Shown here piece by piece: positions 2,763-20,251 of a DNA stretch of 64,000 nt (position 1 is its first letter; each line of letters starts with the position of its first letter). The notes below the pieces were generated by a model. The model saw only the letters and a list, made by a program, of their open reading frames with translations. It did no database searches and was not told where the DNA came from. The position numbers and the translations under genes are program-made. This DNA is from Lachnospiraceae bacterium (GTDB lineage Bacteria > Bacillota > Clostridia > Lachnospirales > Lachnospiraceae), in the NCBI GenBank assembly GCA_045616165.1, contig JAZLGF010000023.1, positions 906 to 64,905 on the forward strand, read 5' to 3'.

Positions 2763-4232
2763 TTAGTTTTCGTCGCAATAATCTGCTGCACCTTCACCAG
2801 CGAAACGTCCTGTATTTACGCAGTAACCCATTGTGTTACCAGGTAATAAGAACATGTATGAATCGCCATAGATTGTACATGTGTCAGTTCCTGCTGCGAA
2901 GAATCCAGGAATCTTGTTCCATTCATCATCAAGAACTTCACAGTTCTCATTAATCTTAATTCCACCTAATGTGCCGTATCCTGATGGACGGAACTTAGCT
3001 GCATAGAAAGGTGCTTTTCTAATAGGTTTAAGATATTTATTTGGTTTATAGAACTGGCTATCAAAACCATCACAGTAATCGTTGTATTCATCTACTGTAT
3101 CTACTAAAGCTTCTGGATCAATTCCTAAAAGCTCAGCGAGTTCTTCGATTGTATCTGCTTTAACAACGTCTGGGTTGTTAGGATCGTTAAGAACGTCCTC
3201 AACGCATTGCTCGAAGTCATCGATTGATTCTGGATGATGAACAAAATTAGTAACATCAAGTCCTCTCTTCTTATATCCATTAACGATTGCTTGATCTAAG
3301 ATTGAGAAGCCAACAGCTCCTTTTTGGATTGTGATTGCGTTACCTGTGAATGTAGTATTCTGCATTTGTTCTTCGTTGATAAAACGTTTTCCATATAAGT
3401 TAACCATAAGGTTAGGTTGCATAAACACTGCAGGAATACAATCTGGACCCATATCACATTGTGGAAGAAGATAAATCTTTTCAACTGTCATTTCTGTTGT
3501 AGCTGCGCCAGCGGCGATAGCCATCTTGATTCCTTCACCTTTAAGTCCAGGAATAACGATGTTGAATAAGTCTTTACCATATGTAACGCCCATTCTTTCA
3601 TGCATGTATTCTGGTGAATCTCCAGCACCACCAGTTGCAACAACTACTGCTTTACAATCAACATGATATTCTTCGCCATCATTTCCTTTAGCGTTAACGC
3701 CACAGATTTTCCCTTCTGCGTCTCTTAAGATTTCAGTAGCAGGTGTTTCATAGTAGAACTCTGCTCCGTTTTCTTTTGCTCTATCAAGCATAGCTTTGTT
3801 CATAACAGCACCACCGTTACGTCCAATACCAGCATTACCTAAAACTCCGTTAGGTGATACGATATGCCATGTTGATTCAGCTTTTGGGAAATAAGGATAT
3901 GCGCCTGCAAATATAACGCCTAAATCCTCTAACCATTCAATTGTACCTGCTGATGCTTCAAAATATTTTTTAACCATGTTTGCATCTACTCTCCAGTGAG
4001 TATATTCCATGAACATTTTGAAAGCTTTTTCAACATCAATATCAATCATCTGTGCTTGTTGTTGTTTTGTTCCGATACCAAGAGGTCCCATACCCATATT
4101 AGCAGCACCACCTGATACACTCATTTTTTCGAATGCAATAACTTTGCAACCTGCTTCTGAAGCTTCTACTGAAGCTGCAAGACCAGCAGGGCCTGTTCCA
4201 ATTATTACTACATCAGCCTGTAAATTTTTCAT
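2763..4232 (-). CDS. Soluble FAD-dependent oxidoreductase, fumarate reductase/KstD-like flavoprotein family
   Basis: 489-aa ORF. N-terminal dinucleotide fold VVIIGTGPAGLAASVEASEAGCKVIAFEK and C-terminal FFAAGTDT segment are typical of FRD-like flavoenzymes. AAGGAG SD is present. No signal peptide or TM segment. Confidence 0.8.
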   Translation of the reverse strand: MKNLQADVVIIGTGPAGLAASVEASEAGCKVIAFEKMSVSGGAANMGMGPLGIGTKQQQAQMIDIDVEKAFKMFMEYTHWRVDANMVKKYFEASAGTIEWLEDLGVIFAGAYPYFPKAESTWHIVSPNGVLGNAGIGRNGGAVMNKAMLDRAKENGAEFYYETPATEILRDAEGKICGVNAKGNDGEEYHVDCKAVVVATGGAGDSPEYMHERMGVTYGKDLFNIVIPGLKGEGIKMAIAAGAATTEMTVEKIYLLPQCDMGPDCIPAVFMQPNLMVNLYGKRFINEEQMQNTTFTGNAITIQKGAVGFSILDQAIVNGYKKRGLDVTNFVHHPESIDDFEQCVEDVLNDPNNPDVVKADTIEELAELLGIDPEALVDTVDEYNDYCDGFDSQFYKPNKYLKPIRKAPFYAAKFRPSGYGTLGGIKINENCEVLDDEWNKIPGFFAAGTDTCTIYGDSYMFLLPGNTMGYCVNTGRFAGEGAADYCDEN

Positions 4233-4251
4233 AACCTTTTTCTCCTTTTAA

Positions 4252-6048
4252 TTATCTATATTCATAACCATCTGTTTTATATCTAGCTGGTATATAAGGT
4301 ACACGTAGCCATGATTCATATTGTCCACCAGTATGAATTATATGTCTGCCTTCATTATCTGTATCCCATGATAATGGTTCAAACCAACCTTCACGAATAT
4401 ATCCGCCTGCGATTTGAACACGAAGTTTTTGACCTTTATGCCAGAAACGGCTAGAAGGTACAATCGCAATATCAACAGGAACAATTTCGCCTGGTTTAAG
4501 TTTTTGTTCTCTCTTTTGAGCCTGTACTGGCCAGTAGTATTCGCCTTTTTGACGATAGAATTTCATTTCTTCTTCGTCAAGTTCTCTTCTACTTACTCTC
4601 ATCTTGCCCCAAGCACCTGGGTGTGGCTCATTAAGTGTATACCATGGAATCCAATTTCCTGATGCGTCTGCTTTTTGAACGTTAACAAACATATCCATCT
4701 CATTATAACTGTCTGATGAAACCCAAAGCCTAAGCCACATATAACCTGTAAGCTCTGTATCTTCTTTGAATTCCATATCGAATTCTACTCTGTCGATATA
4801 TCCGTCTTCGCCTACTTCTGCGTTATAAGAAACCTTTGATTCTTCAGCTACTGGAGTTTCTTGCATTGAAAGAGTTTTCGCATCAAGATAATATTTTCTA
4901 TATTCTGTTCTCTTAAGTGGCCATTCTTTTTCAGCTCTACGCTCACAGTAATCAACATCATAAGCATCCATAACGTCAAGACGTACCTTTGGTGTCATTT
5001 CCCAACCATTGTGAATGTCTTTAAGATATCTATCATAGAATAACTTAAGATCTTGTAAGTTAACAGGTGAATATGTATCTGGCCATTCAAAATCTCTATG
5101 TGCTCTAAACCATTTAAGTTTTGATTTACATCCGATAAAAGCTCTAGAAGATCCTGGAAGATGGAAGTGTGACCATCCAGCTGTTTGGTAAACAGGAATC
5201 TTAACATTCTTAAAATCAGCTTGTTTATCTTTCCAATATCCATTATAGAAAGGATATTTACGAGCCATAGCAACCTGATCATCAACGCCACCGTTACCAG
5301 TAACTTGAGCTGCGATAAACTCATTAAATGAAAGTGCAGGAATTCCGCCTTCATATAAAGAATCTCTAAATATATTTGTTGTGCTTTCCCAAGGAGCAAT
5401 ACATGCAAGGTGTGGTGGTTGTTGAGCTGCGATACCCCATTGATGCATAGCAACACCAGAGTTACCACTCATACCAACTTTTCCATTACACCATTCTTGT
5501 GAAGCGAGCCATTCAACGAAATCATATCCATCTTCACCATCTTGATGTGTAAACATATGAACGTTGCCTTCTGAATGTCCTGCACCACGTACGTCAACGT
5601 TTGCAACAGCATATCCTTGATAGCACCAGAAAGCTGGGTCTGGAGATTCAAACTTTGCAAGGTTTGAAACTGTGTGTGGTGGTACACCCATAATCTGCCA
5701 TTCACTCATTCCATCGCCAGGTCTTTTTCCAAACCAGCTCCATGAAACGATAGCAGGAATTTTTTCTGTTCGATTTGCTGGAAGATAAAGATCAGTATAA
5801 ATCTTACATCCATCTCTTAATACTACTTCAACATCCTGATAGCATATAACGTTTGGGGCAGCTTCGTATGTTCTTTGATTAAAAGCTGGACAAAAACCTT
5901 GTCCCATTCTTGCCATAGGATCATCAGACTGTGAAAGATCAATATAATCCTGATTAGGTACAGGTGTTCTAGCCACTCTGTAAATAGCTTCGATTTCTTC
6001 GCCTTGATAAACTTCATTTAGTGTGAAAAATTTTCCACCGATTGCCAT
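4252..6048 (-). CDS. CocE/NonD family alpha/beta hydrolase (peptidase S15-like)
   Basis: 598-aa ORF. The N-terminal pattern VEVVLRDGCKIYTDLYLPANRTEKIPAIVSWSWFGKR matches the CocE/NonD signature (V.MRDGV.L..D.Y.P....PV.L...PY). A long beta-rich C-terminal domain and an AGGAGG SD are present. Confidence 0.75.
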   Translation of the reverse strand: MAIGGKFFTLNEVYQGEEIEAIYRVARTPVPNQDYIDLSQSDDPMARMGQGFCPAFNQRTYEAAPNVICYQDVEVVLRDGCKIYTDLYLPANRTEKIPAIVSWSWFGKRPGDGMSEWQIMGVPPHTVSNLAKFESPDPAFWCYQGYAVANVDVRGAGHSEGNVHMFTHQDGEDGYDFVEWLASQEWCNGKVGMSGNSGVAMHQWGIAAQQPPHLACIAPWESTTNIFRDSLYEGGIPALSFNEFIAAQVTGNGGVDDQVAMARKYPFYNGYWKDKQADFKNVKIPVYQTAGWSHFHLPGSSRAFIGCKSKLKWFRAHRDFEWPDTYSPVNLQDLKLFYDRYLKDIHNGWEMTPKVRLDVMDAYDVDYCERRAEKEWPLKRTEYRKYYLDAKTLSMQETPVAEESKVSYNAEVGEDGYIDRVEFDMEFKEDTELTGYMWLRLWVSSDSYNEMDMFVNVQKADASGNWIPWYTLNEPHPGAWGKMRVSRRELDEEEMKFYRQKGEYYWPVQAQKREQKLKPGEIVPVDIAIVPSSRFWHKGQKLRVQIAGGYIREGWFEPLSWDTDNEGRHIIHTGGQYESWLRVPYIPARYKTDGYEYR

Positions 6049-10626: not shown

Positions 10627-13587
10627 TTAACTAGCAAATAAATTTTTTGTTTCCTTAAATAATTCTTTGCTTTCTTCTATTTTTGTTTCATTTCCAATAA
10701 CACAGATATTTCCGCCGTCTAATGCGTTTTGAATCATTTGTGCTAATGCTTTTATATCTTCTTGCTTGCAATCAATAACTTCGTCTCTTGCCTTTTGAAC
10801 ATCTTCATATGTTGTATGAGTTATAAGTGCCATCATATCCCTTTGGCCTTTCGCGCAAGGTGTAAGCGGACTATCCATGCTACTCATTGTTCCAATAATA
10901 AACTTAGTCATCTCTCTGTCTGAAACATCAAAGTTTTCAAGGAATAAAGATATTCCATCAAATACTTCTATAGAACGTTTAAGATGGGGATCTCTATAAG
11001 TTACAAAACTTGCTATTCCATTTGGTGCTACTGCGCACATACATCCATAAGCTCCGCCTTGTACTCTAATGTTAAACCACATGTATTCATAACTCATAAT
11101 TACCTTGAATACTCTAAGTGCGCCTGTATATTTAGATGGATCATCGAAAAGCAGTCCTGACTTAGCTACATATTGTATTTTTGCGGATGTCTTAAATCCT
11201 TCGTTTTTCTGAACTAATTTTTCCTTGAGATTATATAAATACTTTCTTTCTAATATAGGTGTGTTATTTTTTTCTTTTTTATTTTTTTCTTTAAGCTTTG
11301 TAGCAAATTTTTGCATTCTAGATTCAAAAATTTCATAGCCTTTATCATCACCTGTAAAGCTAATTGCCAAACCTTCTGTATTAAAAATATTATTTACTAT
11401 TTCTTTTATTTTATTTTTTAATTCTACTTTTCTTGATTCATAATTCTTATCAAGTTCTTCAATGAATTTATAAAATTCTATACCGTTAACTATTTCTTTA
11501 AGGTACGAAACTTCACTAAAATATGATGTTGATCTTAAAACAGACGCTACATGGCCCGCCTGGTTAAGGCTCATCTGCAACTTACTTTTAAGTTCTACTA
11601 TAATTTCATATAACCTGTCAGTATCCTCATAATTGCTTTCTAAAACTATTTCTTCAATAAGATCTATACTCTTATCAATATTTTCATATAGTGTTCTTGT
11701 TGAAACATCTGATAATAGTGAATATTTTTTATCATCTGATTTATCAGAATAAACTCCGCAATCAAAGGCAAGCGCTCCTGTGTATATATTTATTTCATTA
11801 TTTAATTGAGCATATGAATAATTTTTTGTATCGACAAAACTAAATATTGATTTTAATAAGCTAAGATATGGTGCATCCTCAGGAGAAATCATATTTGAAT
11901 CTAACAATAATGAAATGTATGCTATTCCGTTTGTATCATATTCATGATAGTACACCGGAATATCTTCTATATTTTTTTCTTCATTTTTAAATTCTTCTGC
12001 TTGTCTTTTTAAATCATCTTTAGAAAGAAGTGGAATTGTTTCAAGAGCTTCTTTTGTTTCAGGTTCTTCCTGGTATGCGCTAAGAGCTTTTGTCTCTTGA
12101 ATTATTTTTTCTATTTCTTCATCAGATAAACTTTGCTTATATTCTTTTAACTTTTTAGCTACTTTTTCTTCGCTCTTTGCTGCAAGTCCTTTTTTAGGAA
12201 CTAGTGAAAAAATCGATGCATGATTATTATTAAGCAAATATTTTTTAATAAGTTCCTCAAAATATCCGCTCTTAATATTTTCTCTTAAGAACTTAAAAGT
12301 ATCATTACAATCTATATGCATCAAAGGCTCATTTTCATCATAAAGCCAACTATCTAAACAGTTTAATCCCCAGATAAGTCCTTTTGGATAGCCTCCAAAA
12401 TCAGCCTCTTTATATTTAAATTCAAGAGAATTTACGCTAGCGATTAACGACTTTTCGTCTAATCCTTCGCAAGCTGCTTTTTCAAATTCTTCATTTATTA
12501 TTTCTATGAAACGATCTTCTTGGTCTGCTTCAGCATTTTTTGCAATAATATTAAAGTAAGGTTGGGCTATGCCATTTTCATATGCACATATGAAATCTTT
12601 ACCGATACCCTCCTTAAAAAGTCTATCTCTTATAGGTGCGCCCTGGGTATCAATAAGTGCATACAAAATCATCTGCATTGCATAATACTGTTTTGAATCT
12701 AAGTTATTTCCACAAACAATATTGTATGTAAGATATGTATTTTCTTTTTCGCTTTCTTCTTCTGAAATAGGATATTCTATACTACTTTTTGCTATTTCGT
12801 TAAATGGTTTTTGAATTTTAATTTGTGAATCAATATCTATCTTTTCATATTTTGATAAATATTCTTTATCTAAAAATTCAAGACGCTCTTCAATATCCAT
12901 ATCACCATATAAGTAAATAAAACTATTTTCCGGATGATAATAGCGCTTATGGAATCCTATGAAATTTTCATAAGTAAGCTCTGGAATATATTCAGGATCT
13001 CCTCCTGATTCAACACCGTATGATGTGTCCGGATATAAGGAATGAAGTATCTCTCTTTCCAATACGCCTTCTGGTGATGAGAAAGCTCCTTTCATTTCAT
13101 TATAAACTACACCGTTATATGTTATCTCATCTTCTTTGTTTTCTAGTTTATAATTCCATCCTTCTTGCTTCATGATTTCTGGATGAGTATAAATATTTGG
13201 ATTTAATACTGCATCCATGTAAACATCCATAAGGTTTTTAAAATCCTTATCATTTCTACTAGCAACCGGATAAACTGTTTTATCAGGATATGTCATTGCA
13301 TTAAGGAATGTATTTAATGAGCCTTTTACAAGCTCAACAAAAGGATCCTTAAGAGGATATTTTTTGCTTCCACAAAGAACAGAATGTTCCATAATATGTG
13401 CAACTCCAGTATTATCTTCCGGTGGTGTTCTAAATCCTATATAGAAAACTTTATTATCATCATCATTTGAAAGAATAAAAATTCTGGCGCCACTTTTTTT
13501 ATGTTTCAAAAGGAACGCCTTACTTTTTAAGTCTTCAACATATTTTTCAAAAATTACTTCATAGTTTTGATTCATGCTTTTCTCCAA
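10627..13587 (-). CDS. M16 family (PreP-like, M16C) zinc metallopeptidase
   Basis: 986-aa ORF with the inverted zinc motif HIMEH (HxxEH) near the N-terminus. Confidence 0.85.
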   Translation of the reverse strand: MEKSMNQNYEVIFEKYVEDLKSKAFLLKHKKSGARIFILSNDDDNKVFYIGFRTPPEDNTGVAHIMEHSVLCGSKKYPLKDPFVELVKGSLNTFLNAMTYPDKTVYPVASRNDKDFKNLMDVYMDAVLNPNIYTHPEIMKQEGWNYKLENKEDEITYNGVVYNEMKGAFSSPEGVLEREILHSLYPDTSYGVESGGDPEYIPELTYENFIGFHKRYYHPENSFIYLYGDMDIEERLEFLDKEYLSKYEKIDIDSQIKIQKPFNEIAKSSIEYPISEEESEKENTYLTYNIVCGNNLDSKQYYAMQMILYALIDTQGAPIRDRLFKEGIGKDFICAYENGIAQPYFNIIAKNAEADQEDRFIEIINEEFEKAACEGLDEKSLIASVNSLEFKYKEADFGGYPKGLIWGLNCLDSWLYDENEPLMHIDCNDTFKFLRENIKSGYFEELIKKYLLNNNHASIFSLVPKKGLAAKSEEKVAKKLKEYKQSLSDEEIEKIIQETKALSAYQEEPETKEALETIPLLSKDDLKRQAEEFKNEEKNIEDIPVYYHEYDTNGIAYISLLLDSNMISPEDAPYLSLLKSIFSFVDTKNYSYAQLNNEINIYTGALAFDCGVYSDKSDDKKYSLLSDVSTRTLYENIDKSIDLIEEIVLESNYEDTDRLYEIIVELKSKLQMSLNQAGHVASVLRSTSYFSEVSYLKEIVNGIEFYKFIEELDKNYESRKVELKNKIKEIVNNIFNTEGLAISFTGDDKGYEIFESRMQKFATKLKEKNKKEKNNTPILERKYLYNLKEKLVQKNEGFKTSAKIQYVAKSGLLFDDPSKYTGALRVFKVIMSYEYMWFNIRVQGGAYGCMCAVAPNGIASFVTYRDPHLKRSIEVFDGISLFLENFDVSDREMTKFIIGTMSSMDSPLTPCAKGQRDMMALITHTTYEDVQKARDEVIDCKQEDIKALAQMIQNALDGGNICVIGNETKIEESKELFKETKNLFAS

Positions 13588-14448: not shown

Positions 14449-15235
14449 TAACTTCCTCCAATGTAAATCTTCCTAACTTCCCGTTTCTAAAATTTTCCAG
14501 TAACATGTTGGCTGCTCTTAAAGTATCAAATTGGCCCCCAGATTTTAGGCAGCCCCTTTTCTTAGCATAATCTTCAAGTGATTCAAAGCCTGTATCTACC
14601 GTCTTTATAAGTTCGCTTGCTAATTCTTCGACATTTATTATTTCATCATTTATTGAGCCAATAAGAGCGATATTTAGTCCTATTTTTTCATCATCAAATT
14701 TTGGCCATAAAATTCCCGGCGTATCAAGTAACTCTAATGTGCTACTTAATTTTATCCATTGTTTTCCTTTAGTAACTCCCGGTTTATTTCCGGTCTTAGT
14801 TGCTGCCTTTTTTGCATATGTATTAATAAATGTGCTCTTTCCTACGTTTGGTATTCCTACCACCATAGCACGAACCGGTCTATTTTTAATTCCTCTTTTT
14901 CTATCTCTTTCTATTTTTTCTGCACATGCTTTATTTACAACCGAATTTATCTGTTTCATGTCTGCTGCGTTTTTTGAATTTATCATGCAAACGTTAAGTC
15001 CTTGTTCGGTAAAATACTGATACCACTGCTTTGTCTTTTTCTCATCTGCAAGGTCACATTTATTCATTAAAATAAGACGAGCTTTCCCAGGTGCTATAGT
15101 ATCAATATCAGGATTGCGACTTGATAAAGGTATGCGTGCATCTATAAGCTCAATAACTAAATCTATGAGCTTAATATCTTCTTGCATCTGTCTTTTTGCT
15201 TTGGTCATATGACCTGGGTACCATTGAATATTCAT
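14441..15235 (-). CDS. rbgA: Ribosome biogenesis GTPase A (YlqF/RbgA), circularly permuted GTPase
   Basis: G4 NKCDL precedes G1 GIPNVGKST and G3 DTPG. The gene lies next to rplS, as in Bacillus. Confidence 0.9.
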   Translation of the reverse strand: MNIQWYPGHMTKAKRQMQEDIKLIDLVIELIDARIPLSSRNPDIDTIAPGKARLILMNKCDLADEKKTKQWYQYFTEQGLNVCMINSKNAADMKQINSVVNKACAEKIERDRKRGIKNRPVRAMVVGIPNVGKSTFINTYAKKAATKTGNKPGVTKGKQWIKLSSTLELLDTPGILWPKFDDEKIGLNIALIGSINDEIINVEELASELIKTVDTGFESLEDYAKKRGCLKSGGQFDTLRAANMLLENFRNGKLGRFTLEEVNG

Positions 15236-15284
15236 AACAATTTATTATATCATAACTATTACTTTCATGCCTTAAAATAAAGCA

Positions 15285-15314
15285 AAGAAAAAGGAGTTCA
15301 TTTGAACTCCTTTG
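15285..15314 (-). terminator. Rho-independent terminator after rplS
   Basis: Stem AAGGAGTT/AACTCCTT (within 15291-15312), followed on the minus strand by TTTTT. Confidence 0.65.
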
Positions 15315-15320
15315 GCTTTA

Positions 15321-15668
15321 CTATCTAAGTACTTCTTTAACTTTAGCACTCTTGCCTGTTCTTTGACGTAAGTAGTTAAGTTTAGCTCTTCTGACTTTAC
15401 CTTTTCTTACAACCTCGATTTTCTCGATTGTTGGAGAATGAAGTGGCCATGTCTTTTCAACGCCTACACCGTTAGATGTTTTTCTAACTGTAAATGTTTC
15501 TCTAGCGCCACCGCCTTGTCTTTTAAGAACTGTACCTTCGAAAACCTGTACTCTTTCTCTGTTACCTTCTTTGATCTTGGCTGATACTTTAACTGTATCA
15601 CCTACATTGAAGTCGTCAACTTTCTCTTTAAGCTGACCTGCCTCGATCTTTTTAATGATTTCGTTCAT
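15321..15668 (-). CDS. rplS: 50S ribosomal protein L19
   Basis: 115-aa [31 protein letters not shown]..., canonical L19. Confidence 0.97.
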
Positions 15669-15777
15669 TGCGTGACCTCCTAATTAAAAAATTTCGATGT
15701 TCTTAATACTTAAGCCGCATCTTTTTGATGCCAAGGCCACTTCGTAACAGCGGACCATCTGTTTCACAGCAAGAAAT
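15669..15777 (-). promoter_or_regulatory. Structured 5' leader of rplS (possible L19 autoregulatory leader)
   Basis: The ~110-nt untranslated leader contains small perfect hairpins on the minus-strand RNA (GCAUC-AAAAA-GAUGC, CUUAA-GUA-UUAAG). L19 leaders are known in low-GC Gram-positives. I cannot verify the consensus from memory. Confidence 0.3.
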
Positions 15778-15806
15778 AGTTTATCACAGCCTAAATGCTA
15801 TTGCAA
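15778..15806 (-). promoter_or_regulatory. Predicted sigma-A promoter of rplS
   Basis: Minus strand reads TTGCAA, a 17-nt spacer, then TAAACT, with TG at the extended -10 position. Confidence 0.4.
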
Positions 15807-15809
15807 GGC

Positions 15810-16373
15810 TTATTTTATAGCCTTTTTATCTGTTTTTAAGGAAGTATAACTCCTTGAAACACAAACTTTATCCTGCCCGCTGTCGCTCCAATCTTTTTTT
15901 ACATTTTCAATGTCATATACATTAATATCTTTTCTATCTGTACTGATTTTTATTTCTTCATCAAACATCCAACCTTTGGAAAAAGAATAAACATTATAAT
16001 TAGTAAATATTATTAAAGCTTGATCTATTTTGATTTCATATTCTCCATCATTCACGTTGATGATGTCTGTTACAATTTGAACATCTTTAACTTTTTCATC
16101 TATCATATATTCTTTTGTTTCAATACCATATGGAAATTCGTCTGTTAATTTAACTTTCACACAAGAAAAATAAGCAACATCTTCTTTGGCTCCAAAAAAC
16201 TCAACCGGCTTTTGCTCATTTGAAAAATCAATTGCAAATGTCCCCATATTTATTCTTAAAAATTGCATAGGATTGTATCTATCTTCTAATGAATACTCAT
16301 ATGATTTGAAAGTTTTTCCTATCATTTCTTTTAATGTGTTTTTCATTTTTTTATCAAAACATGCGTTAATCAT
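15810..16373 (-). CDS. Hypothetical protein, 187 aa, D/E-rich, no TM segment (last gene of the unknown four-gene operon)
   Basis: ORF starts 2 nt after the stop of the 138-aa ORF. I recognise no family. Confidence 0.6.
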   Translation of the reverse strand: MINACFDKKMKNTLKEMIGKTFKSYEYSLEDRYNPMQFLRINMGTFAIDFSNEQKPVEFFGAKEDVAYFSCVKVKLTDEFPYGIETKEYMIDEKVKDVQIVTDIINVNDGEYEIKIDQALIIFTNYNVYSFSKGWMFDEEIKISTDRKDINVYDIENVKKDWSDSGQDKVCVSRSYTSLKTDKKAIK

Positions 16374-16375
16374 TT

Positions 16376-16792
16376 CTAATCCTCCACAAAAAAGTGAATT
16401 TTTTGAGTTTTTATACTCTTTTCACCTATTACATTAATATCTACTGCTGGGCTTCCTTTTGTGCTAGTAATTATTCTATGTGTGATCCATGTTCCATCAT
16501 CAAGACGAACTCTACTTCCTTTTCCATTTGCCAAAGGCCCTTTTTTACCACCCGTAGCTAATTTTTCAAAAAAATCTATCGAGTCACCTATTGGATCATT
16601 CGTTTTATAAACTCGTGCATTTTTCCCTGGTTGAGCAAAATACCCATTAGAAGTCAGTCCATATTTGTCCTTAACCAATAGCGCATTTTCCTCAATTGAA
16701 GATTTTTTCTTGGTATTTTTTGGGGCTATGCTTTCAGAAATATCCTCAGTACCTACCGTATTGGAATAATTACCTCCATATCCACTTCCCAT
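16376..16792 (-). CDS. Hypothetical small basic protein, 138 aa, with a G/S-rich N-terminus
   Basis: Its ATG overlaps the stop of the upstream DUF4417 gene by 1 nt (16792). The C-terminal part GKGSRVRLDDGTWITHRIITSTKGSPAVDINV...KIHFF is reminiscent of stand-alone toxin-type modules, but I cannot name a family. Confidence 0.55.
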   Translation of the reverse strand: MGSGYGGNYSNTVGTEDISESIAPKNTKKKSSIEENALLVKDKYGLTSNGYFAQPGKNARVYKTNDPIGDSIDFFEKLATGGKKGPLANGKGSRVRLDDGTWITHRIITSTKGSPAVDINVIGEKSIKTQKIHFFVED

Positions 16793-17499
16793 TATTTTTC
16801 ACTCCTAATATAGCTTGTCCAATCTGGATATTTTACAAATTCTGTATCGTACTTGTAATCATCAAATATTTCTTCTGGCATGGCGCCATAAACCAAAACA
16901 ACTTCCGGCTCAAGTGTTTCAAGCATGGCCTCTAAACCAGCTCTAAAGTGATGCTTTTCAGACTTTGTTTTTACTACTCCATACGAACCTATAGATACTA
17001 TACTGTGTTTTTCAACTCCTAAAAAAGCTATTGGTTCTGGAAATAATTTAGTTGTATACGTTCTTTCATCCCCCCATCTAACATTAGGAATAACATAAAC
17101 TCCTCTTTTTTGCATATAGTATCCTATTGCTTGACTTCGATATTTATTAATTACTTGAGCTGCATATGGCATGTCCCAGTATAATGATGCATCCGGAGAT
17201 ATAAATGCCTGATATTTTTTTAATTCACTTATATAATTATCCGTATATCTTAAAAGGTCAGCAAAATCTCTATCTAATTCATATTCACAAACTGCAAATT
17301 TTTCAGGCTCAACTCTATCCATCTTACTAAATGGCACCATTCCTTTTGGTATCATTATTTTTTTTGGCTTTTTAATAATTGGAATTTCAAAAATTCCATC
17401 AAAATCTGCGCCTTTGACTAATTCCGGATTACATCCATCTGTAATAACAGCCAATCTTTCCTTTTCTTTTGCAATCTGTTTTCTTGTTTTCGTTGACAT
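16792..17499 (-). CDS. DUF4417 domain-containing protein
   Basis: 235-aa ORF. Assignment to DUF4417 is from my memory of the family (FISPDASLYWDMP...YYMQKRGVYVIPNVRWGDERTY...VLVYG) and is not verified. Confidence 0.55.
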   Translation of the reverse strand: MSTKTRKQIAKEKERLAVITDGCNPELVKGADFDGIFEIPIIKKPKKIMIPKGMVPFSKMDRVEPEKFAVCEYELDRDFADLLRYTDNYISELKKYQAFISPDASLYWDMPYAAQVINKYRSQAIGYYMQKRGVYVIPNVRWGDERTYTTKLFPEPIAFLGVEKHSIVSIGSYGVVKTKSEKHHFRAGLEAMLETLEPEVVLVYGAMPEEIFDDYKYDTEFVKYPDWTSYIRSEK

Positions 17500-17523
17500 A
17501 TTTATTTCCCTTCTTTTAAGAAT

Positions 17524-18831
17524 TTAATCTCTTAAGCATCCTATTGGTATTATTTTTACTCCATTATCAGTAATGTATCCATATTGTGCTGTTGCACAAA
17601 TCACGATTAATGCTGATGGTTCTCTATATATAGTTCCAGGGTGTTTTGAGTTTTTAGACGCCTCTTCATTATGTTTTTTTATTACATCCTTAAATTTTAA
17701 AAGTGTCGTCTCCGCTTCTGGTATTTTATTTGTACCCGTCTTAATTTCGATTAAAGCATATCTTCCATCTTCCATTTGATATACTGCATCTGCTTCAAGA
17801 CCTGTATCATCCGTGTAATGCAAAATTCGAGCATTATGAGCTTCAGCATAAACTATTAAATCTCGCAATACTAAATTTTCAAAAACATGTCCAAAAAAAT
17901 CCAAATCATTAATAAAATAGTCTGGGTTAATACCTAATGCTGCCAATCCAATTGAAGTATCAACAAATATATGTTTTTTCCCACTTCGTATTGCTGTTTT
18001 TGATCTAATCTGCGGTGTCCATGCATCTATATCTCTTATAACAAATAATTCTTCTAATTTTTCAACATAAGAATCTAATGTTACATCTGTCACATTTTGT
18101 GTAGCCTTAACATCTGCATAAATAACTTTCTTTTTTGCTTTCGTAGCCATATTTCGTGCGTATGACCATAAAAGCGTTCTAGCCCACTCTGGGTTTCTTT
18201 CAACTCCGTCTATAGCACTAATATCTACCTGATAAATTCTTCTATAATAATCTTTTGCTATTTCTAATTTTGCATTCTTGCTTTTTAAGGCCATACACCT
18301 CGGCCACCCACCTCTACAAACAATGTAGAATAATTCTTCTAAAGATAAGCTTGTGTTTGCTCCTTCTAATTTATAATTTTCCTCTTCTACAATTTTTGAT
18401 AAAGATATTTGTCCATTTGATTCTCCTGTTTCCCACAAGGTCATTGGAAACATACTTAATTCTGTGATTCTCCCCGTTCCTGTGTGTGGTGTTATGACCT
18501 TTTTGCTAGATGAACCTGTCAAATAATATTCTCCCACACTTTCAGGATTATCATCACAATCTTTACGAATTGTTCCCCATATTTTTACAGCATCTTGCCA
18601 TTCATCAAACAGTATTGGTTTACTATTTTTTAAAAACAAATTTGGTGCCGTTTCTGCTACAGCTAAATAGCCATCCCTTTTTTCTTCATCTTGAAATTCA
18701 ATTACAGTACTGCATCTCTCTTTAGCTGTTCTGGTTTTTCCACAACCTTTTGGCCCAATAATGTTTATAGCATTAAATGCTTCTTTGCGTTTATCTATAA
18801 TATCATCAACAATTCTTCTTATATATTCCAT
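17524..18831 (-). CDS. P-loop ATPase of the AAA_14/DUF4143 (COG1373) type
   Basis: 435-aa ORF with Walker A GPKGCGKT and Walker B-like ILFDEWQD. The C-terminal half is typical of DUF4143 proteins. AAGGAG SD is present. Confidence 0.7.
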   Translation of the reverse strand: MEYIRRIVDDIIDKRKEAFNAINIIGPKGCGKTRTAKERCSTVIEFQDEEKRDGYLAVAETAPNLFLKNSKPILFDEWQDAVKIWGTIRKDCDDNPESVGEYYLTGSSSKKVITPHTGTGRITELSMFPMTLWETGESNGQISLSKIVEEENYKLEGANTSLSLEELFYIVCRGGWPRCMALKSKNAKLEIAKDYYRRIYQVDISAIDGVERNPEWARTLLWSYARNMATKAKKKVIYADVKATQNVTDVTLDSYVEKLEELFVIRDIDAWTPQIRSKTAIRSGKKHIFVDTSIGLAALGINPDYFINDLDFFGHVFENLVLRDLIVYAEAHNARILHYTDDTGLEADAVYQMEDGRYALIEIKTGTNKIPEAETTLLKFKDVIKKHNEEASKNSKHPGTIYREPSALIVICATAQYGYITDNGVKIIPIGCLRD

Positions 18832-18853
18832 AAACGATATCTCCTTCAGTTAT

Positions 18854-18882
18854 ATAATAAAACTTCAAGTGCAATTATTCAA
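18854..18882 (-). promoter_or_regulatory. Predicted sigma-A promoter of the four-gene operon
   Basis: Minus strand reads TTGAAT, a 17-nt spacer, then TATTAT, about 20 nt upstream of the SD. A direct repeat GCACTTGAA x2 overlaps the -35 and spacer. Confidence 0.45.
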
Positions 18883-19033
18883 GTGCATTTTGTATTTTTC
18901 GGCAATTTTATTTTGTGTTTTTCGGATTTTGTTTGTGAATAACATGAATCATAAACATAATAAAATGCAGATTAAGCGCAATATAAATTCCATGTTTATG
19001 AAAAGATATTAAAAATGTTCGTTTTAACTAACA

Positions 19034-20251
19034 TTAACTTAATAAGAATTCGGCTAGGACTTTATTGCTAAAATCTATGCCTTTGTCTGTTAATTTTACG
19101 TTATCGTCGACAACAGTTATATAGTCTTCTTCAAGAAGCTTATCAACAACTTCGCCATATGTAAAATCAAAGTCCTGTCCAAAGGTATTGATAAAGTCTT
19201 CTTTATTTATACCGTCGGCTAACCTTAGCCCTAGGAACATGTACTCTTCCATTTGAGCTTTATGGCTAAGTTTTTCTATGTCTTTTCTAATATTTTCTAG
19301 TACACATGTATCGCTCGAAAAAGCATCCAGATATTCATCTAAATTCTCAGTATTTTTCCATCTAGTATTATTAACCATGCTCGATGAATTTAAGCCCAGT
19401 CCTAAATAATTTACTCTTTTCCAATAGCCTTTATTATGTTCGCATTCAAATCCATCTCTTGCATAATTTGATATTTCATAGCGGTGATAACCACATTGCT
19501 CAAGATATTCTTTTGTATAATAATAAATTTCTCTTTCAGTTTCTTCTGAAGGAAGCATTAATGTTCCTTTTTGCTGCATCTCATAAAATGGTGTATTTTC
19601 TTCTACTATAAGCGAATAAGCGCTTATATGTTCCGGAAGCCATGTTGAAATAAGAAGCATCGTTTTTTTCCAGCTAGATAAAGTCTGTCCTGGAATAGCC
19701 TCAATCAAATCGACATTTATATTATCAAATCCCATCTGCCTAGCCATTTTATAGTTTTCAACAAAATCATCGTACGTATGGACTCTCCCTAATACTTTTA
19801 AGTCTTCATCGTCTGTAGACTGAAGTCCTATGCTTAATCTATTTATACCTAACTTTTTATAAGTTATTAATTTTTCTTTTGTGAGTGTTTTGGGATTGCA
19901 TTCTATAGAAAATTCTACTTTCGGTCTAATCTTTTTAATCTTTGTAGGTAAAATTCCTTTGTAGGTATGCTTAATATTTTTTATTTTGAAATTTTTCTTT
20001 AATGTGTTAACGATTTTGCTTATTTGCTCAGAAGAAAGAATAGAAGGTGTTCCACCTCCTATGTATATTGATGTGATGTTATAGTCCTCATAATCTTTTG
20101 CGCTTAATGTTATTTCCTTGCAAAGTGCATCCACATATTTTTCATGTTTATCTTCGCAGTTTGCAAATGAAATAAAATCACAGTAATTACATTTTTTTAC
20201 GCAAAATGGTATATGAATATAAAGTTCTAAATCTTTCATTTTATCTGTCAT
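19034..20251 (-). CDS. hemW: Radical SAM heme chaperone HemW (oxygen-independent coproporphyrinogen oxidase-like)
   Basis: CxxxCxxC motif [10 protein letters not shown]. The gene sits downstream of lepA, the classical lepA-hemW (hemN) arrangement. Confidence 0.85.

Follow-up and report, generated by a model that had tools for sequence, protein, structure and literature searches.

Which kind of system is encoded by a compact block of four genes lodged between hemW-lepA and rplS in a Lachnospiraceae bacterium, and is it one system at all? The question arises from contig JAZLGF010000023.1 (GCA_045616165.1), of which a stretch of 64,000 nucleotides (nt) was analysed; this whole stretch is called the window, and all positions are given in its numbering. 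A preliminary description of the same DNA had taken the block for a single four-gene operon of conflict or defence type under its own promoter. On balance, our analysis favours a different partition, in which the block probably consists of two adjoining units, a PDC-S01-type ATPase (gene 1) and a three-component polymorphic toxin module formed by a DUF4417 protein (gene 2) and two small proteins (genes 3 and 4). The four genes are:

17524-18831, minus strand: gene 1, ATPase, 435 amino acids (aa)
16792-17499, minus strand: gene 2, DUF4417 protein, 235 aa
16376-16792, minus strand: gene 3, 138 aa
15810-16373, minus strand: gene 4, 187 aa

The anatomy of the block was recovered as first described. 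Genes 1 and 2 are 24 nt apart, genes 2 and 3 overlap by 1 nt at 16792 through a TAATG stop/start, and genes 3 and 4 are separated by 2 nt. The flanks are hemW (19034-20251) and lepA upstream and rplS (15321-15668), rbgA and ftsY downstream. Family assignments made at that stage hold in Pfam, with AAA_14 (2.2e-12) and DUF4143 (2.6e-32) for gene 1 and PF14386 (DUF4417, 3.2e-47) for gene 2, and the two small proteins are indeed a basic and an acidic one, with isoelectric points of 9.2 for gene 3 and 5.0 for gene 4. Within the window, no integrase or phage structural gene adjoins the block, and its GC content is the same as that of its surroundings.

The main argument for dividing the block comes from its distribution elsewhere, which suggests that the conserved unit is the trio of DUF4417, gene 3 and gene 4 rather than all four genes. 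A word-indexed search gave 24 clusters of gene 3 homologues and 9 clusters of gene 4 homologues, and a metagenome scan with the gene 3 alignment gave 39 loci, annotated with custom hidden Markov models (loci are cited below by L numbers). The gene 3 copies of these 39 loci fall into 27 clusters at 90% identity. DUF4417 lies upstream of gene 3 in 33 of the 35 metagenome loci with room for it, and gene 4 follows gene 3 directly wherever the contig had room (37 of 37). The order DUF4417, gene 3, gene 4 is kept at unrelated loci:

L001-L003: between dinB and a Mur ligase gene (murC in L001)
L010 and L011: between XRE/M78 genes and ArdA
L012 and L013: beside HepT/MNT and ParE
L019: beside VapBC-like genes and a serine recombinase

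No description of this linkage was found in the literature searched. In the plasmid collection gene 3 was absent and DUF4417 occurred in only 5 records.

Within the trio, gene 3 is the component whose relatives are most telling, and two parts of it can be distinguished:

16748-16792, minus strand: glycine-rich leader of gene 3, 15 residues, MGSGYGGNYSNTVGT
16379-16705, minus strand: putative toxin domain of gene 3, approximately residues 30-138

A full HMMER search with the gene 3 profile returned 519 representatives at E<=1e-3, mostly of 120-160 aa, and every longer protein among these matches carries the domain at its extreme C-terminus. The N-terminal modules vary. The N-terminus of protein P0162 carries a Phage_Mu_F fragment (2.6e-5, below the Pfam cut-off), P0161 and P0167 have a linker before the domain that we read as PT-TG-like, and P0219 (397 aa) comes from a locus that also has a WXG100 gene. 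In the viral contig L021, a portal gene has a duplicated 3' cassette that terminates in this domain, and the N-terminal part of the gene is 52% identical to annotated portal proteins. A C-terminal domain placed on varied N-terminal modules, an immunity gene downstream that co-varies with it and a conserved leader with exchangeable domains are features of polymorphic toxins, and all three were encountered here; a dedicated secretion or delivery apparatus was not found near the block in the window. The gene 3 domain is conserved at N36, G50, F52-G53, D99, R106, S114-P-A and Q130-K-I-H-F (alignment A6). Because it is basic and has the conserved D99, R106, K131 and H133, we would guess at a nuclease or RNase activity. 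None of 67 family members has a Pfam match, profile search of PDB sequences gave chance-level matches only, and scans of gene 3 with Pfam, PHROGs, NCBIfam and PADLOC gave nothing usable; the window copy has no MuF domain and, from reading of the sequence, no obvious signal peptide. A fusion of DUF4417 to gene 3 by -1 frameshifting was considered and dropped, as a canonical slippery heptamer is lacking and the overlaps differ at other loci.

The portal locus in L021 (31-3408) deserves a remark of its own. There, behind a portal gene that has a C-terminal extension, stands a second copy of the portal 3' region, which ends in a different domain, that of gene 3 type. An ORF (open reading frame) of 72-75 aa comes after each copy, and the arrangement resembles a portal protein whose toxin cassettes have been displaced.

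Gene 4 is best read as the cognate immunity protein of the gene 3 toxin domain, because its homologues follow other toxins with the same domain and because gene 3 is repeatedly lost while gene 4 persists. Two fused-toxin loci with a downstream gene were examined, and in both a gene 4 homologue comes directly after the toxin, namely the WXG100-locus toxin in L072 (1e-51) and the PT-TG-type toxin in L071 (3e-57); other cargo domains (L026, L074) are followed by other small ORFs. As for loss of the toxin, L016 and L017 each have a precise deletion of gene 3, at two different junctions, even though their DUF4417 is 98-100% identical to that of the window, and it is frameshifted, split or truncated in L059, L064, L067, L069 and L076-L078, all of which retain gene 4. 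Orphan gene 4 copies occur in L004-L009, L014, L015 and L018, and the orphan of L004 is still preceded by the final ten gene 3 codons (QKIHFIYESE*). The opposite situation, gene 3 without gene 4, was never seen where the contig had room. From these comparisons, the pairing of genes 3 and 4 as toxin and immunity protein appears highly likely. The AlphaFold2 model of gene 4 (pLDDT 84) is almost all beta-strand; Foldseek found no match to it in the PDB at E<=1e-3, the gene 4 profile reached PDB sequences at chance level only, Pfam, PHROGs, NCBIfam and PADLOC gave nothing usable, and alignment A8 has no invariant polar residues.

The orphan in L004 stands behind two genes that could be mistaken for its partners. 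At 2764-4615 of this locus, and also in L005-L009, a phosphoribosyltransferase-like gene (183 aa) and a short DprA-domain protein (228 aa; DNA_processg_A 9.5e-56, weak LDcluster4) occupy the dinB/Mur-ligase hotspot that in L001 holds the ATPase and the trio, and are followed by the gene 3 remnant and the orphan gene 4. A link of gene 4 to this pair was rejected, since the 3' remnant of gene 3 lies between them and gene 3 has therefore been displaced.

The third component, DUF4417, gave an AlphaFold2 model of high quality scores (pLDDT 88, pTM 0.87) with alternating strands and helices; the prediction is of an enzyme of alpha/beta type, perhaps with a barrel-like fold. Residues conserved across the family (D76, D103, S105, D109, N118, Y120 and Q130 in alignment A7) appear, in our reading of the model, to lie near strand ends, as in barrel enzymes. 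Foldseek against the PDB gave no match at E<=1e-3, and the PDB sequence search was at chance level. In BFVD, the best matches outside the family were phage queuine tRNA-ribosyltransferases (TGTs), a weak likeness (E 6.6e-3, probability 0.93, TM 0.40; TGTs are 4 of the top 14), and no TGT was among the top 50 PDB matches shown. The searches found 1,402 close relatives of DUF4417. Phage records with a DUF4417 gene number 491; in many of them it is the first or second gene at an end of the genome or directly precedes the terminase gene, and it is gene 1 of many cluster A mycobacteriophages. Moreover, ParB-DUF4417 fusions have been reported to be enriched in prophages (bioRxiv 10.1101/2025.10.10.680097).

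What appears to join DUF4417 to gene 3 is the glycine-rich leader. Nearly every DUF4417 gene has behind it an ORF that starts with a leader of the form MG[GSAT][GR] and continues into a variable cargo domain, and at least six cargo types that are unrelated to one another carry such a leader. The loci in which an ORF of this kind comes after DUF4417 include L026, L074, L071, L027, L029, L030, L081, L086, L093, L098, L102 and L103. In L026 the leader is on a 157-aa protein followed by a 126-aa ORF, in L074 and L075 on a 124-aa protein followed by a 104-aa ORF, and in L071 on a second small toxin, upstream of which the contig edge encodes the DUF4417 C-terminus. In the phage contexts of L027, L029 and L030, ORFs starting MGGRG or MGGCGSSSG come after DUF4417 near portal or terminase genes. 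Mycobacterium phage GuuelaD encodes DUF4417 as gp113, and its gp114 starts MGGRGGGGGG. In the cluster A phage NothingSpecial (L079, 1100-1932), gp1 is DUF4417 and gp2, a "metalloprotease", is annotated from a GTG codon; its frame extends upstream by about 60 Gly/Ser-rich residues that overlap the end of gp1 and are left out of the annotation, so that the true start probably lies further upstream. Streptococcus phage IPP54 encodes a fusion of ParB to DUF4417, behind which come a protein with GGGRGANF and HNHP...S..D motifs and then the terminase. Reading of sequence motifs in the phages suggests that their cargo domains resemble metalloprotease, JAB/RadC-like, ADP-ribosyltransferase-like and papain-like effectors. 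Counted over distinct ORFs downstream of DUF4417, 28 of 46 have at least four glycines in their first 14 residues, against 3.3% of control ORFs, a contrast that is biased upward by the use of the most glycine-rich start codon at each locus; about 30 of the 46 begin with MG within -61 to +11 nt of the DUF4417 stop. Conversely, the gene 3 homologues that have no DUF4417 neighbour (L020, L062, L072, L021) have no leader either. We infer that DUF4417 may act on, or through, the leader of the cargo encoded downstream of it.

Gene 1 belongs to a known candidate family. It matches the PADLOC model PDLC04790 (PDC-S01) at 1.7e-52, with residues 1-385 aligned to model positions 8-387 of 422, and six more PDC-S01 models also match it. 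A Walker A motif (GPKGCGKT) and a Walker B motif (ILFDEW) can be read from the translation, and the C-terminal ...EADAVY...YALIEIK looks like a PD-(D/E)xK-like motif. PDC-S01 is described as an ATPase fused to a PD-(D/E)xK domain, a single-gene candidate from "guilt-by-embedding" which is not yet validated (PMC12988326). Gene 1 matches the model over nearly its full length and has the same ATPase plus nuclease-like architecture; genes 2-4 lie outside that single-gene definition. The preliminary statement that no named system matches the block was accordingly wrong for gene 1. At other trio loci, the position upstream of DUF4417 is held by different genes:

L001 and L002: AAA_16-type ATPase without detectable similarity to gene 1
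L076-L078: AlbA_2/HATPase_c_4 protein
L010, L026 and L070: XRE and M78 peptidase
L074: XRE and ORF6N
L012: toxin-antitoxin genes

In L010, L012 and L070 there is no nucleoside triphosphatase (NTPase) at the gene 1 position. The PADLOC match, the non-homologous substitutes and the absence from most trio loci lead us to regard gene 1 as a separate, not constant, neighbour of the trio. The preliminary description had named separate occurrence of the four genes in other genomes as an argument against their unity; separate occurrence was found for the ATPase, and the trio stays together. The reading of the small pair as a polymorphic-toxin domain with its immunity protein goes beyond the general layout of defence or toxin-immunity cassettes that it had perceived.

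How do other explanations of the block compare? It could be one integrated four-gene defence system, a more specific form of what was first proposed, in which infection would be sensed by the ATPase; this in turn would govern DUF4417 and the toxin, and gene 4 would serve as a safeguard. The tight spacing of the four genes with no internal terminator, the presence of an NTPase-type gene 19-24 nt upstream of DUF4417 in three independent lineages and the joint movement of the ATPase and DUF4417 as one segment, 98-100% identical, would all fit. Yet the three upstream NTPases belong to three families and are not homologous, many trio loci have XRE/M78, ORF6N or toxin-antitoxin neighbours instead, PDC-S01 is defined as a single-gene candidate, and in L016 gene 1 is almost wholly deleted while genes 2 and 4 are intact. 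A single system of four genes is in our judgement improbable. An explanation in terms of restriction-modification, with DUF4417 modifying DNA and gene 4 as a HincII-like restriction endonuclease, starts from matches of gene 4 to PADLOC REase_II (5.3e-5), Pfam HincII (0.58) and HincII in the PDB (E ~1), together with the weak similarity of DUF4417 to TGT-like barrels and its fusion to ParB in phages. The REase_II match is confined to 1 of 7 gene 4 members and the Pfam HincII match to 1 of 20, the nearly all-beta model is unlike the alpha/beta PD-(D/E)xK core and draws no nuclease from Foldseek, and no acidic or lysine residue is invariant across the family. In addition, gene 4 stands alone in L014, L018 and L004-L009, which would be lethal for an unguarded restriction enzyme. 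As far as these analyses reach, a HincII-like nuclease is refuted for gene 4 by the profile counts, the all-beta model, the lack of a fold match and the lack of invariant catalytic residues, and we give the restriction-modification explanation almost no credence.

A closer competitor treats genes 3 and 4 as a plain toxin-antitoxin pair that merely happens to have an enzyme gene of phage origin, unrelated to it, as a neighbour; the leader would serve only as a recombination handle for exchanging toxin cassettes. Genes 3 and 4 do occur without DUF4417 in L020 and L062 and intact beside DUF4417 remnants in L041 and L058, and recombination breakpoints lie at the borders of gene 3. DUF4417 is nevertheless present at nearly all loci with room for it, with start and stop codons that overlap or nearly do so; the leader is also found on non-toxin cargo in lytic-type phage contexts, in phages of Firmicutes and Actinobacteria, and disappears where DUF4417 is missing; and gene 4 has no recognisable DNA-binding domain of the sort usual for type II antitoxins. 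We hold the plain pair to be unlikely, while giving it some weight. At the other end stands a bolder extension of the trio, in which DUF4417 is a packaging-module enzyme that recognises the leader and processes or attaches a toxin, protease or ADP-ribosyltransferase-like cargo, to be carried with the capsid or the DNA into the next cell, the chromosomal trios being domesticated or stranded; this is speculative and rather doubtful at present.

Several observations weigh against the division into a separate ATPase and a toxin trio, or against parts of it. Three unrelated NTPase-type genes stand 19-24 nt upstream of DUF4417 in three lineages (the window, L001 and L076), and such recurrence may be a real functional link that we discount. 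The likeness of DUF4417 to TGT-like barrels is weak (TM 0.40) and does not appear among the top 50 PDB matches shown, with no PDB match at E<=1e-3. The leader could be a recombination handle for cassette swapping with no biochemical tie to DUF4417, and the glycine count is biased upward. Genes 3 and 4 match no Pfam or PDB sequence family, and toxicity and neutralisation are read from gene context. Finally, as the window has no secretion, type VII secretion or virion genes near the block, a delivery role could not operate locally.

Gene order, conservation of the trio, the C-terminal toxin domain elsewhere, the toxin-immunity pairing, the repeated toxin loss and the link of DUF4417 to the leader come from sequence comparison; toxicity, the activity of the toxin, its neutralisation by binding, the action of DUF4417 and any anti-phage effect belong to the scheme that we would propose for the two units. 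Gene 1 would be a stand-alone PDC-S01-type ATPase with a nuclease-like C-terminal region, of a type that is a very common, unvalidated defence candidate. Gene 3 would be an intracellular toxin made up of the 15-residue glycine-rich leader, a variable linker and a toxin domain of about 110 residues, which gene 4 would neutralise through direct binding. DUF4417 would be a conserved, enzyme-like partner that acts on the glycine-rich leader of the cargo encoded behind it, or by way of that leader, whichever cargo this is. Its ancestral role was probably to process or load an effector that travels with packaged DNA, because phage pairs of DUF4417 and leader-bearing cargo adjoin terminase or portal genes. 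A chromosomal trio with no virion genes would most likely be a toxin-immunity module of addiction, exclusion or abortive infection.

The claim that the block is accessory and of conflict type is supported. Two Lachnospiraceae metagenome-assembled genomes (MAGs), L016 and L017, carry it at the same hemW-rplS site, with the following identities to the window:

hemW: 72-85%
rbgA: 73-92%
ATPase-DUF4417 segment: 98-100%
gene 4: 93-97%

The jump in identity between the block and its flanks indicates that species have exchanged the block recently; recombination within the conserved flanks is the probable route. Elsewhere the cassette adjoins toxin-antitoxin genes, Type I restriction-modification genes, ArdA and serine recombinases, and other trios also lie between core genes, at rpsB-tsf (L076) and dinB-murC (L001). 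An empty hemW-rplS site was not found in relatives; an exact look-up of the rplS protein gave one contig of 992 bp, which also has gene 4.

Three of the trio loci show their surroundings in some detail. In L076 (6635-9736; also L077 and L078), the trio comes directly after rpsB-tsf, behind the AlbA_2/HATPase_c_4 gene and with gene 3 split into pieces of 98 and 59 aa, which repeats the window pattern of an NTPase-type gene and trio wedged beside translation genes. In the Eggerthellaceae MAG L019 (5730-9031), the trio is followed by a duplicated fragment of a VapBC-like pair, by an ATPase of archaeal type that is encoded on the other strand, and by a large serine recombinase, surroundings that suggest an integrative island. 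A trio variant common in the human gut sits on the 24-kb element L070 (GenBank MT835627.1, "UNVERIFIED: Bacteriophage sp."), which encodes a D5-like primase, two serine recombinases, DUF932, YqaJ, Type I restriction-modification subunits and an AAA_15/21 ATPase. No capsid genes were among the ORFs checked, and this element, filed as a phage, looks more like an integrative element carrying defence cargo.

The regulatory sites proposed for the block fared less well than its genes. The following features were considered:

18832-19033, minus strand: hemW-ATPase intergenic region with a putative promoter and the repeats CCGAAAAAYACAAAAT and TGCACTTGAA
15805-15824, strand unassigned (the scan lists the plus strand only): short palindromic hairpin, weakly terminator-like, overlapping the gene 4 stop codon

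The putative sigma-A-like promoter at 18882-18854 reads TTGAAT-17-TATTAT, with 9 of 12 consensus matches; such sites number 16 in the region against 18.4 +/- 4.2 in shuffled sequences, so that there is no excess to support a promoter proper to the block. The promoter suggested for rplS at 15778-15806 (TTGCAA-17-TAAACT, 8 of 12) fell below the scan threshold. The scan found no convincing terminator between the block and rplS, and the hairpin at the end of gene 4 has no T run after it on the coding strand. No Rfam elements were found in 15200-19300, which covers the block and the rplS leader. At 18885-18960, ahead of the ATPase gene, CCGAAAAAYACAAAAT occurs twice, and TGCACTTGAA occurs twice over the putative -35. 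Both L017 and L016 have a conserved version of the intergenic region; in L016, CCGAAAAAYACAAAAT is present three times, at the junction of its ATPase deletion. These repeats could be operator sites or a substrate for deletion. Further downstream, the window has a 986-aa ORF at 10627-13587 with a TTG start, which the ftsY stop abuts, and an HxxEH (HIMEH) motif of insulinase type; it appears to be an ordinary housekeeping gene unrelated to the block.

Among known systems, the trio comes closest to the MuF polymorphic toxins and to S8-PTS, and differs from both in DUF4417, in the short glycine-rich leader and in its phage-packaging context. MuF toxins of temperate phages have variable C-terminal toxin domains with an immunity gene next to them and are tied to the head and packaging module (Jamet et al. 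2017, PMC5576092). Relatives of gene 3 share that context, as in P0162 with its Phage_Mu_F fragment and in the portal-fused copy of L021, whereas gene 3 of the window has a 15-residue leader in place of a MuF domain, and DUF4417 is a separate upstream gene and not a fusion. S8-PTS of Gram-positive bacteria are described as combining an enzyme gene that is conserved, a polymorphic toxin whose N-terminal part is conserved and whose C-terminal domain is exchangeable, and an immunity protein (Li, Tan and Zhang 2022, PMC9424270). The three-part logic is that of the trio; in S8-PTS, however, the enzyme is an S8 subtilase and signal peptides, a BetaH domain and secretion are involved, while the trio has DUF4417, no signal peptide and a setting of phage packaging or mobile elements. 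Type II toxin-antitoxin systems likewise co-transcribe a small toxin and a neutralising partner, and the toxin that is never seen without its partner and the common orphan partners recall genes 3 and 4. Here, by contrast, the toxin comes first, the partner is larger, all-beta and without a detectable DNA-binding domain, and the toxin domain is shared with toxins of secreted or packaged type. Polyvalent proteins of phages and conjugative elements (credited to Iyer et al. 2017, J Bacteriol) reportedly carry metallopeptidase, RadC/JAB, ADP-ribosyltransferase, papain-like and RNase-type domains and are thought to be delivered together with DNA. These cargo types are, by motif reading, like those linked to DUF4417, but polyvalent proteins are giant fusions as against small, separate, leader-bearing proteins.

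In the literature searched, no function is assigned to DUF4417, and the analysis offers a testable role for it, namely that exchangeable leader-bearing cargo is nearly always encoded after it and that in bacteria a toxin, accompanied by an immunity gene of its own, is frequently what is carried. It would add a toxin family (gene 3) and an immunity family (gene 4), both absent from Pfam, and the orphan gene 4 copies from gut and rumen would be explained as orphan immunity genes. That an apparent four-gene operon is probably two units matters for defence catalogues that are built on gene adjacency. Perhaps, if the packaging role of DUF4417 is true, this family marks a previously unrecognised delivery route for polymorphic effectors.

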